Shown: positions 1,983 through 6,385 of the stretch, in pieces
Layout of the letters: each line of letters starts with the position of its first letter
How positions within the stretch are numbered: position 1 is the first letter of the stretch
NCBI GenBank assembly: GCA_050014835.1
Contig: JBEKCO010000004.1
Location: 1-62,308 of the forward strand
Direction: 5' to 3'
From: Acidimicrobiales bacterium
GTDB taxonomy: Bacteria; Actinomycetota; Acidimicrobiia; Acidimicrobiales; Bog-793
DNA: 62,308 nucleotides
Translations under genes and position numbers: made by a program
The notes under the pieces: generated by a model
What the model was told of the DNA's origin: nothing
Databases searched by the model: none
What the model saw: the letters and a program-made list of their open reading frames with translations, nothing else

Positions 1983-2073
1983 GGGGTCTCCCCGTACGGA
2001 TTGGCGATAGCGCGCCAGAGCCTATAGCGGGCACCCAGCCTGGCCCGGGCAGGGGCCGAGATACCATCGCATG

Positions 2074-2697
2074 GTGCCCGAAGTGCGCCGGGCGAACCCC
2101 CGGGACATGGCCATACTCACGCGTTCGCTCGCGTCGGCGTTCGTCGACGATCCGGTATCCGCCTTCATCTTCCCCGACGGGGACCGCCGGGAGACGATCC
2201 TTCAGGAGTTCTTCGCCGTGCAGTTGTCGCGGACCTACCTGCCCCGCGGCGAGGTCTACACGACCGGGGACGCGATCGGTGCGGCGATGTGGCTGCCGCC
2301 GGATTCGCGCCGGCCGACGATCGGCGACCAGCTCGCCTATCTGCGCGTCTCGCTGGCGTCGGGGAGCTACAGGTCGGCTCGTCGGCTGGCGGTCGCCCTC
2401 CAGCGTCACCGCCCACTCCTGGCGCACTACTACCTCGGCACGGTCGGCGTCGCCCCGGCCCATCAGCGAGGCGGGCTCGGAAGCGCGCTGATGCGGCCGG
2501 GACTCGCGCGCTGCGACGCCATGCGTCTCGGGGCCTACCTCGAATGCTCGACCGAGCCGAACACCCACTTCTACGAAGGGCTCGGATTCCGGGTCACAAG
2601 GGAGATCCGGGCGCCCCGTGGTGGCCCGCGGCTCTGGCTGATGTGGCGGGAGCCGGCGGGGGCGGGTCCGCCGGGGTCGGCAGAACTGCGTCCGTGA
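2074..2697 (+). CDS. GNAT family N-acetyltransferase
   Basis: YLGTVGVAPAHQRGGLGSAL acetyl-CoA motif, AYLECS, FYEGLGF; GTG 2074 lies 6 nt after TACCAT (alternative ATG 2071). Confidence 0.9.
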   Translation: MPEVRRANPRDMAILTRSLASAFVDDPVSAFIFPDGDRRETILQEFFAVQLSRTYLPRGEVYTTGDAIGAAMWLPPDSRRPTIGDQLAYLRVSLASGSYRSARRLAVALQRHRPLLAHYYLGTVGVAPAHQRGGLGSALMRPGLARCDAMRLGAYLECSTEPNTHFYEGLGFRVTREIRAPRGGPRLWLMWREPAGAGPPGSAELRP

Positions 2698-2700
2698 CGG

Positions 2701-3678
2701 TCAGGCGCGCCGAGGTTCGCGCTGCGACGGACCCGGCTCGGGCTTGTGCGCGGCCGCTGCGTGCTCCTGGGCGATCGGGTGCACGCCCTTCGGGAGCCGG
2801 CTCGGGTCGGCGAGGATCGTCGTGAGCACGTCGAGGACGGCGCGCACCGGCGCGCCGGGGAGGGCCCGACGACGTTGGGCGACGCCGATGACCCGGGGCG
2901 CGAGACCCTCGACCGGGATGATCGTCCAGGACCTTGCCCGGCGGACCGGCAGCGCGCTCGTCGGCAGGATGGCGAAGCCGCAGCCCTCGAACATGAGCGA
3001 GCGCATGAGCCGGAGGCTGTCCAGCTCGGCCCGGGGGTGGAGCGCGACCCCTGCTGCGGCGGCGAGGGCGTCGAGGGACCTCCGATAGTTGCTGCCCTCG
3101 AGCGGCAGAAATAGGGGGAGGTCCGCGATGTCGACGACCGTCACGGACTCGCGGGCAGCGAGCGGGTGGGATCGGGGGAGAAAAAGGCCGATGTCCTCCT
3201 CGAAAAGCGCCACCGTGTGGACCTCGGAACCGGAGGCGGGGAGGGCAAGCACGCCGAGGTCGATGTCCCCGGTCGCGAGCTGCGTGTCGAGTCCGAGCGT
3301 CGTCGCCTCCCGGAAGATGAGGCGCAGGTGGGGGTGGAGCGCCGGGACGAGGTCGAGGAGTTCAGGCACGATCCACAGCGCGGCGGTCCCGATGAGGCCG
3401 AGCTGGACCGTCCCGATGATCTCCCGGCTGAGCGCGGTGACGTCGGAGGTGAGGGCGTCGAGCTCACCGATCACGCGGCGGGCCCGCTCCACCGCGAGCT
3501 CGCCGGCGTCGGTCAGTCGCCCGGTGCCACGGTCGACGAGGACGGATCCGAGCTCCACCTCGAGCTTCTTCACGTGCGTCGAGACGTTCGACTGCACGGT
3601 GGCGAGCGCGTCGGCGGCCGCCGAGAACGAGCCGTGCTCGGCGATCGCGACCAGGGCGTTCAGTTGCCGCAGGTCCAT
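2701..3678 (-). CDS. LysR family transcriptional regulator
   Basis: MDLRQLNALVAIAEHGSFSAAADAL...QSNVS HTH plus a substrate-binding domain. Confidence 0.95.
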   Translation of the reverse strand: MDLRQLNALVAIAEHGSFSAAADALATVQSNVSTHVKKLEVELGSVLVDRGTGRLTDAGELAVERARRVIGELDALTSDVTALSREIIGTVQLGLIGTAALWIVPELLDLVPALHPHLRLIFREATTLGLDTQLATGDIDLGVLALPASGSEVHTVALFEEDIGLFLPRSHPLAARESVTVVDIADLPLFLPLEGSNYRRSLDALAAAAGVALHPRAELDSLRLMRSLMFEGCGFAILPTSALPVRRARSWTIIPVEGLAPRVIGVAQRRRALPGAPVRAVLDVLTTILADPSRLPKGVHPIAQEHAAAAHKPEPGPSQREPRRA

Positions 3679-3688
3679 CGGACTAAAT

Positions 3689-3742
3689 GATAGGCGCTAT
3701 CTATCGCAACTGTTTGACTGATGGTGCGAGCTTGGCAACAGT
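3689..3742 (+). promoter_or_regulatory. LysR operator and divergent promoter
   Basis: GATAG-N7-CTATC (3689-3705, contains T-N11-A); TTGACT (3714-3719)-17 bp-AACAGT (3737-3742). Confidence 0.65.
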
Positions 3743-3747
3743 AGGGG

Positions 3748-3832
3748 TCAACCACGGGAGTGACGGTCCCCCACCGGAGCCCTGTGGGTGTGAACTGAAC
3801 GAAGGGGCCGGTCCCCCCCCGGCCCCTTCTTC
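3748..3832 (+). ncRNA. Putative 6C-like small RNA with two C-rich loops
   Basis: Hairpin 1 CCACGGG..CGGT-CCCCC-ACCG..CCCTGTGG (3752-3787); hairpin 2 GAAGGGGCCGG-TCCCCCC-CCGGCCCCTTC (3801-3829); promoter directly upstream; no credible ORF. Confidence 0.6.
3801..3831. terminator. Perfect 11-bp hairpin, likely a bidirectional terminator
   Basis: GAAGGGGCCGG/CCGGCCCCTTC; lies 40 nt past the stop of the minus-strand acyltransferase. Confidence 0.7.
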
Positions 3833-3869
3833 GCGTCCGGGGGGCGGCGCCTTCCTTACGAAGCGGGCA

Positions 3870-4799
3870 TCACCAGGGCTTGGCGGAGGTTCTCGATCGC
3901 GAGCGCCTTGTGCGCCGGGCGCTCGCCGGGAGGACCCAGGCGCGGCGCCACGGCGAGGCGTCGGGCCCGCGGAACGCCGGTGTCTCGCCGGCGGCGGCGC
4001 GTCGGCGCGCCGACCACCAGTCCGACTCGGCTTCGTCGGCGAGGAGCGCCACGGACTCTTCGATACGGGCAGCGAAACGGCGGGCGTCCTCTTCCCGGCC
4101 GTCGTGACCTGTCGCCTCGCCGGGCCACAGGGGATCCCCGAAGCGGATCTCGACCTTGCCCCGGCGCAGCGAACTGCTGCCCTTCGGGAAGACCGGCCGG
4201 ACGCCGCGCAGGTGGACGGGGACGACGGGCACGTCGCAGCGTTTGGCGAGGTAGGCGGCTCCACCGCGGAACTCCTGGCCCCAGCCATCTGGGCTGCGAC
4301 CTCCCTCGGGGAAGATGACGAGGTTCCAGCGGTCGGTGAGGAGTTGCGCGGCGAGATCGGCGCTGCGCCGGTTCACCTTTGTCCGCTCCATCGGGATGGT
4401 GCCGAGGGCGAGCGACCACAGCGCCGCCTTCCAGGGGCGGTCGAAGAAGTAGTCCGCTGCCGCGGCGACGACCGTGCGGCGCCGGAAGCGTTCCGGCAGG
4501 CACGCCACGACGATCGAGGTGTCGAGGTGGCTCGAGTGGTTGGCGGCGAAGATCACCGGCCCGTCGAGCGCGTCGAGGTGCTCCCGGCCGAAGACCTTGG
4601 GCGCGGCGACGGCGGCGACGAAGGGACGGGTGACGTTGTCGACGAGCACGCGACGCACGGCCCGTGCCCAGGGCGCCCGCGTCCAGGCCGTGTCGTAGTC
4701 GACTCCGATGTTGCGCCGCTCGATCGGGCGCGGCAGGGTCCCGGGCCACGTCGGGCGGGAGACGACGTCCTCGACGATGCGGGGGAGTCGGACGCTCAC
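3870..4799 (-). CDS. Lysophospholipid (PlsC-type) acyltransferase
   Basis: NHSSHLD and FPEGGRS motifs; GTG 4799 overlaps the upstream stop (GTGA). Confidence 0.92.
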   Translation of the reverse strand: MSVRLPRIVEDVVSRPTWPGTLPRPIERRNIGVDYDTAWTRAPWARAVRRVLVDNVTRPFVAAVAAPKVFGREHLDALDGPVIFAANHSSHLDTSIVVACLPERFRRRTVVAAAADYFFDRPWKAALWSLALGTIPMERTKVNRRSADLAAQLLTDRWNLVIFPEGGRSPDGWGQEFRGGAAYLAKRCDVPVVPVHLRGVRPVFPKGSSSLRRGKVEIRFGDPLWPGEATGHDGREEDARRFAARIEESVALLADEAESDWWSARRRAAAGETPAFRGPDASPWRRAWVLPASARRTRRSRSRTSAKPW

Positions 4800-6385
4800 G
4801 AGACGTCGGCCACGAGCAGCGGCGGAGCGTGGAGGTGCGTGATCGTCGGGTTCCGGCCGACGACGTCCTCGGCCATCTCGAGGGCGTCGGCGAGGGTCGA
4901 GGCGGGTTTGAACCCCATGCGCCGCACGGCGGCCCGGTCGCCGCCGACGATGATCACGGCGCCGAGATGCTGGAGGGCGTGGGCGCACCAGTACCACATG
5001 TAGAACGGGTGGACGCCGTGGTAGGCGTACGAGGTCCGGTAGAGGTGGATGTACCAGGGATCGGTGGCGAACGACTCCTCGTAGCGCTTCTCGATCTCCA
5101 CGAGGTCGGTCGTCTCGGCGAGCACCTGCTCGAAAAAGTCGATGTAGCTCGGGTGGTGGACCGGGTTGAACGCCCACGGCGTGGGGTGGGACATGATGCA
5201 GACCCCGCCCTCGCGCACGAGCGGCCGGCCCCGGTAGAGGTTGAAGAAGTAGCCGAGCCCGAGGCAGGCGACGAGGATCGGGTTCATGATCGAGTTCACG
5301 TTGTACGGGCACAGGTACGGCAGGCCCATCGTCAGGATGTCGGTCTGGCCCTCGACGTAGACGAGCTGCTGGCGGTGGAGGTTCTCCAGCGTGACGTCGT
5401 GGACGGCCTCGACCTCGCCGGCCTGCACCGAGGTGACCGCGTAGGGCGAGAGCATCGACTGGAAGATCTGGCGCGCGAGCCGCGGCGGGGTGCGGTCGAG
5501 CGAGAGCCGGGTCGCGTGGAAGCCGGCGCGGTCGGCGAGCGACCACTCCCACTCCCGCTTCTGTAAGAAGTTGAACTGCGACGGGAACATGTCGAGGTTG
5601 AGCGTCGTCTCGATCTGGAAGATCTTCACGCCGGCAGCCTTGATCAGCCGGCCCATCCGCCAGTTCGAGGAGTGCATCTCGGAGTGGTGACGGTCCATGA
5701 GAGAGCGGCTGTGCTGCAGGACCTTCACGTTGTGGTGGTGACGGAGGCTTCGGTAGCTGGCGAGCCCGGTGGCGACGGATTTGTGGCCGCCGTCCATCGC
5801 CGACAGGTTGATGTTCACGTAGACGAGCAGGTCGCTCTCGGCGGCCCGCCGGTTGATCTCGACGTCCTCGCCCTTGTCGGTGAGGCCGAGGTGGACGAGC
5901 GCTCCGGGGTCCTCGGCATCGTGCTGCTGCAGAAGCCCGTGGGGCGCGAAGGCGTCGAAGACCCGGTCGCCGAGGGCGTGGCGCAACTCGTCGTCGGTCA
6001 TCCGTCGGTGGATGGCGAGCGCGGCGATGAGGACGACGTCGTCCACGCCTGCCGCGGCGGCCTTGTCGAGGACGGCTTCGATCACCCGTTGGCGGATGTC
6101 CGGCCGGCGCATCGGCGGCAGCGGCAGCGAGACGTCGTCGAAGGCGATCGTGAGCCGCATCCCGGGCTTCAAGAGCGCCGAAAGCGGCGCGGAGTCGCCC
6201 AGCGGGTGCTCGAGCGCGTGGCGGATCGACGCTTCGGGGTCGACCAGTCCGTCGAGGGGCTCGGGCGGGTAGACGACCCGGGAACCCTCGGGCAGCCGCT
6301 CGAACCGGAAGCCCTCCCCGTGCCAGAAAACGGTCGGGGGGGTCGACCGGTCGACCTCGAGTACGAATCCGGGTCTCGGGCTCAC
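4796..6385 (-). CDS. Lactate racemase (LarA/DUF2088) domain protein
   Basis: AFDDVSLP, ALAIHRRMT, HDAED and DGGHKS...HH motifs of the LarA N-terminal domain; 529 aa. Confidence 0.82.
   Translation of the reverse strand: MSPRPGFVLEVDRSTPPTVFWHGEGFRFERLPEGSRVVYPPEPLDGLVDPEASIRHALEHPLGDSAPLSALLKPGMRLTIAFDDVSLPLPPMRRPDIRQRVIEAVLDKAAAAGVDDVVLIAALAIHRRMTDDELRHALGDRVFDAFAPHGLLQQHDAEDPGALVHLGLTDKGEDVEINRRAAESDLLVYVNINLSAMDGGHKSVATGLASYRSLRHHHNVKVLQHSRSLMDRHHSEMHSSNWRMGRLIKAAGVKIFQIETTLNLDMFPSQFNFLQKREWEWSLADRAGFHATRLSLDRTPPRLARQIFQSMLSPYAVTSVQAGEVEAVHDVTLENLHRQQLVYVEGQTDILTMGLPYLCPYNVNSIMNPILVACLGLGYFFNLYRGRPLVREGGVCIMSHPTPWAFNPVHHPSYIDFFEQVLAETTDLVEIEKRYEESFATDPWYIHLYRTSYAYHGVHPFYMWYWCAHALQHLGAVIIVGGDRAAVRRMGFKPASTLADALEMAEDVVGRNPTITHLHAPPLLVADVS

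Follow-up and report, generated by a model that had tools for sequence, protein, structure and literature searches.

A candidate 6C-like small RNA encoded divergently from a LysR-type regulator gene in Acidimicrobiia

What can a LysR-type regulator gene control from its own promoter region, if no protein gene stands divergently beside it? This question arises in a stretch of G+C-rich DNA of 62,308 nucleotides from an Acidimicrobiales bacterium (contig JBEKCO010000004.1, positions 1 to 62,308; hereafter the window), in which lysR (2701-3678, minus strand, 325 aa, ATG at 3676-3678, assigned by Pfam) codes for a LysR-type transcriptional regulator (LTTR). An earlier note on this DNA had read, next to lysR, a palindrome, a promoter and two hairpins with C-rich loops, and had proposed that the regulator controls a small RNA encoded there; as an observation, this module is confirmed. 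The explanation that we hold to be probable, with much room left for doubt, is that positions 3689-3841 form a compact regulator/small-RNA unit conserved in Acidimicrobiia, from which a LysR-activated RNA would silence messenger RNAs (mRNAs) through their ribosome-binding sites (RBSs). Comparison among relatives establishes the core of this explanation, namely a predicted RNA gene on the plus strand that is conserved, structured and fixed to the LysR gene and to a dyad, and it supports a new, class-wide family of 6C-like small RNAs with a dedicated LysR. Transcription of the plus strand, control by LysR, a ligand as the signal and pairing of the loops with RBSs are what we infer beyond that core.

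How firmly is the element tied to the regulator gene? When 41 related genomes were searched at the DNA level with window 3400-4150, 38 had a match; 30 loci, belonging to the genus, the family and the order of the window, were fetched, and all of them encode the N-terminus of LysR. In 29 of the 30, GAT-N7-ATC, N10, GTTKGAC-N-GAT, a hexamer like a -10 and two hairpins with C-loops come after the start codon in this order and at invariant spacing; the conservation of the C-loops beside LysR orthologues, on which the earlier note had made its proposal depend, is therefore what is found. The exception (G013) has the dyad, the promoter and the RNA (81.8 bits; L162, G013:C7, 1501-1599) at a distance of 2.4 kb from its lysR orthologue, and the module is thus separable from the regulator gene and yet kept. 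In G013, another gene ends immediately before the module (L162, L016).

In the window, the dyad GATAG-GCG-CTATC (3689-3701, 13 bp) stands 11-23 nt in front of the lysR start codon; its centre precedes the predicted RNA start by about 55 nt, where activators usually sit, and both its sequence and its conservation mark it as a putative LysR operator. The palindrome first noticed here, GATAG-N7-CTATC, is present, but the element that the relatives keep is this tighter one. GAT-N7-ATC is invariant at fixed spacing in 29/29 loci of relatives, and at one mismatch or fewer the dyad site is unique in its own genome. On the plus strand, the -35 hexamer TTGACT (3714-3719), which lies inside the invariant GTTKGAC-N-GAT and at offset 33 from the LysR start in 29/29 loci, is followed after 17 nt by AACAGT (3737-3742). 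This hexamer agrees with TATAAT at three of six positions, and the relatives have CATACT, CAGACT, CACAAT and similar hexamers in its place. The promoter TTGACT-17-AACAGT with an imperfect -10, as had been claimed, can indeed be read at 3714-3742, both hexamers being kept at a fixed distance, and AACAGT would serve as its -10. A predicted RNA gene is thereby placed divergently from the gene of an LTTR, and the spacer common to both contains a dyad of the LTTR type, as in the layout of OxyR/OxyS. The geometry of the dyad and lysR fits the classical LysR scheme, in which the regulator would repress its own gene and activate the divergent one.

What is the predicted RNA like? It would be about 85-90 nt long and occupy 3750-3838 of the plus strand, where a covariance model built from relatives matches 3744-3841; its start is put at about 3750 and its end at about 3832-3838. 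Hairpin 1 (3752-3787) has an outer stem (3752-3758/3781-3787), an inner stem (3764-3767/3773-3776) and an apical loop CCCCC (3768-3772), and a linker of 13 nt leads to hairpin 2 (3801-3829), a perfect 11-bp G+C stem (3801-3811/3819-3829) closed by the loop UCCCCCC (3812-3818). A conserved 3′ tail, TTCGCGTCCGGG at 3830-3841 (consensus uuCGCGUCyggg), follows on the same strand. Side by side with this, CGCGUCyGGG in the tail is kept across families although it lies beyond the stem, and CCGGGGGG of the window (3837-3844) can pair with CCCCCCGG (3815-3822) as an alternative to hairpin 2.

The near-identical 14-mers that had been reported in the two apices are CGGTCCCCCACCGG at 3764-3777 and CGGTCCCCCCCCGG at 3809-3822, 45 nt apart within one spacer, and folding does place their C-runs in apical loops: for 3750-3836 (87 nt), the fold consists of two hairpins of this kind with -48 kcal/mol and z = -4.0. 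Their common form CGGTCCCCCNCCGG has only these two matches in the 62-kb window at one mismatch or fewer. The count by itself is not significant (1.18 are expected, and two or more occur in 36/100 shuffles), and the weight of the pair rests on the 45-nt spacing in one spacer and on conservation. The single sequence of the window alone would not have convinced us. Loops of the window read UCCCCCA and UCCCCCCCC, and those of most relatives read AUCCCCCCU, which includes CCUCC, the anti-Shine-Dalgarno core; most relatives have six or seven C in both loops.

Further evidence comes from compensatory base changes, which the earlier note had asked for in an alignment of the regions upstream of LysR orthologues and which are found. 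RNAalifold on a raw MAFFT alignment of 26 sequences recovered hairpin 2 only, hairpin 1 being misaligned, and a structure of 27 pairs was therefore written by hand on a MAFFT alignment of 14 sequences, all from other genera. In this alignment 85.2% of cells are paired and 10/27 pairs change on both sides; 0/500 shuffles reach these values, and controls in which the structure was slid give 38-59%. A covariance model, R1, was built from these 14 sequences with the genus of the window excluded, and it recovers window 3744-3841 on the plus strand with 41.9 bits (E 3.1e-7). The sole other match of R1 in the window at E≤1 scores 14.5 bits (E 0.42) and lies on the opposite strand over hairpin 2. In the own genome, scoring of 150/916 first-look candidates showed no second copy at E≤0.1, and the exact pattern likewise gave none. 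Relatives, named records and class-level genomes together yielded a model-aligned set of 64 matches (56 distinct), in which 91.1% of cells are paired and 27/27 pairs change on both sides (245 cells; 0/500 shuffles; slid controls 33-53%). Hairpin 1 contributes helices 1-3 with 14/14 two-sided pairs, and hairpin 2 contributes 13/13 with 97.5% of cells paired.

On which strand does the RNA lie? In the plus orientation the alignment has 55 G-U pairs against 21 A-C pairs, and a C-run is kept in both loops of all 56 distinct sequences. Distant members carry AUUUUUGG or GUUUUCG after the equivalent hairpin, and others have a separate U-tract terminator. The excess of G-U, the C-runs and these distant U-tracts and terminators all point the same way, and we therefore read plus as sense, with a short transcript that would end at hairpin 2. 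Hairpin 2 had been called terminator-like; its 11-bp stem is perfect, but no terminator was called there, and the tail of the window, UUCUUCGCGU, has no U-tract.

How far is the unit spread? A 47-nt pattern of operator and promoter occurs in 62/401 sampled genomes of the class, with 0 for the reversed control, and a shorter pattern in a phylum sample occurs in 9/33 genomes inside the class versus 1/368 outside. Scanned with one genome per species, the pattern gave at least 120 stretches. Titles of the records among the matches listed are mostly metagenome-assembled genomes of Acidimicrobiia, Acidimicrobiales, Microthrixaceae, Iamiaceae and Acidimicrobiaceae; behind the few other titles among them (Kitasatospora, Aeromicrobium, proteobacteria), no LysR-RNA module stands behind the pattern. 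Of the 80 pattern loci whose DNA was retrieved, 48 have an R1 match. Across the class, a search with this model, in which 27 candidates per genome were scored, matched at least 15/151 genomes and is not used as a frequency. When 110 pattern loci were classified (one from the unpublished genome G311), 63 proved to have a LysR start directly at the pattern, 30 a WhiB-like gene and 17 neither; at least two C-loop hairpins lie within 190 nt in 54 of the 63 LysR-type loci. Distant members of the RNA type have one to three C-loop hairpins. Six such loci (L043, L058, L067, L096, L110, L063) vary among three C-loop hairpins, two with a U-tract terminator, and a single C-loop with a terminator, and R1 misses most of the distant variants among them.

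How would such a unit work? LysR would bind GATAG-N3-CTATC between its own start codon and the divergent promoter. With the dyad near -55, LysR together with a ligand would activate a promoter whose -10 is weak, and, as the dyad would also lie on the lysR leader, autoregulation would follow. TTGACT-17-AACAGT would then drive a plus-strand RNA of about 85-90 nt displaying its two C-rich loops, hairpin 2 would end the transcript, and the loops would pair with the G-rich RBSs of several mRNAs and block their translation without a chaperone, by analogy with 6C/B11 of mycobacteria.

And what signal might the regulator sense? The protein has the two LTTR domains, HTH_1 (PF00126, 8.1e-18) and LysR_substrate (PF03466, 1.5e-34). 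Among NCBIfam models OxyR matches it best, with 123.7 bits where the cut-off is 329 bits, and its nearest solved structure is again an OxyR, 4x6g (E 2.9e-25); aligned to this structure, the protein has N and A in place of the residues that we take to be the redox cysteines C199 and C208 of OxyR (E. coli numbering). Because it falls below the OxyR cut-off and has N and A at those positions, the regulator is best described as having an OxyR-like predicted fold and a signal other than OxyR-type peroxide sensing.

Expression and targets were approached with what data there are. One metatranscriptome run (X1), seen as contigs, contains 52% of sampled words, and such contigs cannot show strand, ends or absence. 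Error-free contigs lie on 2767-2859, 3418-3519 and 3547-3716 (lysR) and on 3974-4406 (acyltransferase). The contig 3547-3716 spans the lysR start codon and ends within the divergent -35; if this contig is RNA, the lysR leader has at least 38 nt and contains the dyad. As for targets, a crude gene caller and RNAduplex on the own genome yield a pool of G-run start sites and name no single target: 25/1563 crude gene calls have at least six G in -22..-3, that is 1.6% versus 0.47% inside genes. As for the G-run RBS regions that had been noticed in the window as possible targets, three genes do have a run of six G before the start (CysS family, 45832; GT4 glycosyltransferase, 51458; SecD, 57130), and they are a candidate pool, not evidence.

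Several points weigh against this explanation. Contigs of the run X1 do not cover 3717-3973, which counts neither for nor against the RNA. Consensus scans for promoters and terminators gave 0 sites at the element, the -10 of the window is poor, and the U-tract is absent after hairpin 2 in the genus of the window; the lack of a consensus call fits the imperfect -10 and the missing U-tract. The same dyad and -35 also precede a WhiB-like gene in other families, so that another factor could read the dyad. Folds with longer flanks are no better than shuffles (z -1.7 on the plus strand and -0.15 on the minus strand). Loop 1 of the window reads CCCCC-A-CC with five consecutive C only, next to a loop 2 of eight C. 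G-runs at starts are expected as Shine-Dalgarno sequences in a G+C-rich genome, so that the pool of targets is unspecific. Finally, the 56-sequence count is fitted to R1 and leans towards structure; the 14-sequence count based on MAFFT is the unbiased one.

Is the element, then, merely a divergent orthologue of 6C RNA (RF01066), with an Rfam model too narrow for Acidimicrobiia? The original description of 6C is said to be that of Weinberg et al. in 2007, and its named neighbours are Rv3661/cg0360. We think orthology unlikely, although the resemblance must be taken seriously: the architecture is equal, with two hairpins, C-runs in both loops and a short 3′ tail, and when the filters are switched off, the best match of R1 falls on the exact 6C site and strand in 4/4 canonical loci, with only 11-15 bits (E 0.02-0.14). 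RF01066 itself clearly works, giving 70-92 bits on four genomes of another family, and yet on the element it has no match in window 3000-4600 (E≤10), nor in the whole window at the gathering score (47 bits), nor on the element in 20 loci of relatives (E≤1) or in 20 named loci (E≤0.1). The earlier comparison with 6C therefore stands as an apt analogy of two-hairpin, C-loop architecture, but the covariance-model scan gives no ground for membership in the Rfam family.

Could this RNA be filling the niche of 6C? Over the cut-off, canonical 6C is found 0 times in 41 relatives (nine have weak, scattered matches at other places) and 0 times in 121 class genomes (best 43.1 bits), so that this RNA could occupy that niche. 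It is weak evidence, few candidates having been scored: 29-88 of typically more than 1000 per relative, class or phylum genome, and absence of 6C is not claimed. The own genome gave none among the 150/1318 candidates scored, and 151 phylum genomes gave four over the cut-off, all in one family. The best-scoring class match, L041 541-615 (G055; 43.1 bits against the cut-off of 47), lies beside a gene for a PucR-type regulator (HTH_30 + GGDEF_2) and not beside LysR or HAD, and R1 scores it with 26.8 bits out of register.

Synteny might have seemed to speak for orthology, for a PF12710 HAD gene adjoins both RNAs, and in one canonical locus (L196) 6C is divergent from a HAD-IB gene. The HAD domain beside the Acidimicrobiia RNA is, however, only 33-34% identical to the HAD next to 6C in L196 and is a paralogue, fused to an acyltransferase, while the true orthologue of the 6C-adjacent HAD (49-52%) lies on other contigs in 4/4 genomes (G000, G017, G012, G024), with no 6C or R1 match nearby. 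Synteny with 6C through the HAD gene was thus rejected. Promoters differ as well, since L196 has no LysR gene, dyad or GTTKGAC. Because RF01066 has no match on the element and the element is not at the chromosomal position of 6C, the Acidimicrobiia RNA is treated here as 6C-like in its predicted design and as a separate family. No model of Rfam 15 matches the element. Nor did we find, among the matches listed, a paper that describes a small RNA in Acidimicrobiia, or any paper that brings Acidimicrobiia together with 6C or with small RNAs linked to LysR, the supplementary 6C alignments of PMC6486639 being outside the scope.

Another possibility is that the hairpins are not a free RNA at all, and form a cis-acting 5′ leader or attenuator of a downstream gene. 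In other genera, the RNA is followed by a co-directional gene for a fusion of HAD and acyltransferase, which in L022 and L026 begins 55-60 nt downstream, and leaders with a C-loop hairpin do exist in the class, in front of WhiB-like genes. In the genus of the window the hairpins would then be a relic left after loss of the gene: its genomes (1.9-2.5 Mb) do lack a stretch of about 8 kb including the HAD+acyltransferase gene, when compared with G024, G017, G013, G020 and G022. Against this, none of the nine fetched loci from nine genomes of this genus has a co-directional gene downstream, and yet the RNA is nearly invariant among them while the DNA immediately after it has fully diverged. The HAD+acyltransferase gene moreover has its own conserved TAnnnT, with GTG 7 nt later (motif CGCCTA(C/A)(A/G)TTC in L017, L020, L022 and L024), which suggests a leaderless transcript from its own promoter. 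Distant members end in a full U-tract terminator before the next gene, and no alternative antiterminator pairing is conserved. We regard a leader as quite improbable.

The WhiB-like genes deserve a closer look. In other families of Acidimicrobiia, a dyad GATGG-N3-CCATC with the -35 (CTGTTGGACAGAT) stands between a LysR gene and a gene of the WhiB family (PF02467), as at L194 1380-2003 and in twelve further loci (L049, L056, L071, L086, L088, L091, L094, L098, L106, L112, L117, L118). LysR of this type of locus is 34% identical to that of the window overall, with a near-identical helix-turn-helix, and the WhiB gene has a leader of about 90 nt with one long hairpin whose C-rich apex resembles hairpin 2. 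R1 has no convincing match in five genomes of the WhiB type, and five genomes of the RNA type have generic WhiB paralogues only (38-47% identity). Did the small RNA come from such a leader? It is conceivable, and we put it forward as a rather unlikely speculation, that the cassette of LysR, dyad and C-loop RNA is an old unit of Acidimicrobiia, in which the leader of a WhiB-like gene became a free-standing, twin-loop, anti-Shine-Dalgarno-like small RNA that replaced 6C in a class where the canonical 6C model matches next to nothing, some families having kept the WhiB-like gene with one C-loop in its leader and others, that of the window among them, having lost or replaced the coding part. If true, one could trace here how a small RNA acting in trans arose from the leader of an mRNA while its dedicated sensor was retained. 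In any case, the WhiB-like arrangement is a natural comparison for how small RNAs arise.

Might the small RNA be real and linked to LysR, and act in another way, as a decoy that binds a protein, or on the transcripts of lysR and its neighbours only? Pairing with RBSs is, after all, argued by analogy, and the tail CGCGUCyGGG and the outer stems (AGACCnCAGG ... GAGUCU) are conserved beyond the needs of pairing, which hints at further contacts. In the genus of the window the RNA and the convergent acyltransferase mRNA would also overlap at their 3′ ends. On the other hand, the C-runs of the loops are the most conserved single-stranded features, and they are the very feature by which 6C binds mRNAs; where the number of hairpins shifts from one to three in distant members, the C-loops persist. 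We give this possibility little credence as well.

The weakest alternative, that the hairpins are only transcription terminators and the rest is promoter and operator of lysR, is scarcely credible, even though hairpin 2, whose perfect palindromic stem can fold on either strand, comes 39 nt behind the stop codon of the acyltransferase gene, and for bacteria of high G+C content it has been suggested that C-rich stem-loops act as an alternative kind of terminator (PMC6486639): the hairpins stay with lysR where the acyltransferase is about 8 kb away in other genera, the three helices of hairpin 1 covary, the plus strand keeps its C-runs and its bias to G-U (55 to 21), and an outward -35 and -10 stand at fixed spacing.

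This last argument depends on the neighbouring genes. The PlsC-type acyltransferase of the window (3870-4799, start approximate, minus strand; stop TGA 3870-3872; Pfam Acyltransferase 1.5e-20) is the last gene of a minus-strand lipid operon that is convergent on the RNA and has upstream genes with Lar_N and Zn-ADH (Pfam). The only plus-strand open reading frame in the spacer (3687-5003) was considered as a divergent protein gene and rejected, since it has no Pfam match and overlaps the genuine acyltransferase gene; 3679-3869, the 191 bases from the lysR start codon to the acyltransferase stop codon, thus contain no credible protein gene, and lysR is without a divergent protein-coding partner, as had been said of it. 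In the family's other genera, about 8-9 kb of one contig separate the acyltransferase match from the match of lysR and the RNA; the hairpins therefore stay beside lysR rather than beside the lipid operon, and the acyltransferase is context outside the module. Fixed linkage to lysR, compensatory changes and a distant acyltransferase together make it untenable that hairpin 2 is only the terminator of the lipid operon. As the stretch of about 8 kb is missing in the genus of the window, the end of the lipid operon there abuts the RNA convergently, and hairpin 2 is shared; it probably ends the operon as well, serving both transcripts. At the other end of lysR, a gene for a GNAT acetyltransferase (2071-2697, plus strand) is convergent with its 3′ end, and the same is seen in a relative of another genus (L022, 2504-3217); in the window and this relative it is a second conserved neighbour of the regulator gene.

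If a LysR-controlled, RBS-pairing RNA is indeed what this unit makes, why does it matter? Among the riboregulators of high-G+C Gram-positives that need no chaperone, C-loop RNAs (6C, for instance) are the best understood, and the signals that control them are poorly known. A dedicated, adjacent regulator of the ligand type and a sharp operator, both conserved in the class, offer an experimental handle in which one regulator, one site and one RNA can be used for asking when C-loop RNAs are made and what they silence. The element is also a well-supported candidate family for RNA databases, in a class that is abundant in soils, peat, fresh water and activated sludge.

How does the unit compare with known systems? 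Its nearest counterpart in design is 6C (RF01066), known as B11/ncRv13660c in mycobacteria, scr3558 in Streptomyces and cgb_03605 in Corynebacterium, which likewise has about 75-100 nt and two C-loop hairpins. The Rfam consensus of 6C has CCCCCC in each of the two loops, and the canonical locus L196 reads alike; a short 3′ tail is common to both RNAs. They differ in the sequences of their stems, in their promoters, and in the linker between the hairpins, which is 10-15 nt in the Acidimicrobiia RNA versus two inserted nucleotides in the one 6C model alignment that was read. 6C is defined by two hairpins whose loops each contain six or more C in a row, and its C-rich loops bind G-rich RBSs such as AGGGGGG of panD without a chaperone, as shown for mycobacterial panD and dnaB (PMC6486639). 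Sites of GlxR, RamA, RipA and LexA are named for 6C of C. glutamicum (PMC5014011). By this likeness, pairing of the loops with G-rich RBSs without Hfq would be the likely common mode of action.

With respect to the pairing of a regulator with a small RNA, the nearest actinobacterial case is AbmR-Mcr11 of Mycobacterium tuberculosis, a divergent regulator and small RNA in which AbmR is an ATP-binding transcription factor, the regulator promoter overlaps the small-RNA gene and termination is non-canonical (PMC7064933). Mcr11 differs in having no twin C-loop design, and no sequence relation was seen between the two RNAs. AbmR is not known to be an LTTR. OxyR-OxyS and GcvA-GcvB are enterobacterial pairs of LysR regulators and divergent small RNAs. 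In Alphaproteobacteria, VtlR/LsrB is reported to be linked with the AbcR small RNAs (PMC7486931). All of these, OxyR-OxyS, GcvA-GcvB and VtlR-AbcR, have in common a LysR-type regulator with a small RNA as its direct output. They belong to another phylum; the RNA of the window is of the C-loop design without Hfq-type features, and a comparison with Rfam gave no match to OxyS, GcvB or AbcR. What the enterobacterial pairs share with the window is the arrangement itself: a small RNA divergent from its regulator gene, with the operator in the spacer between them.

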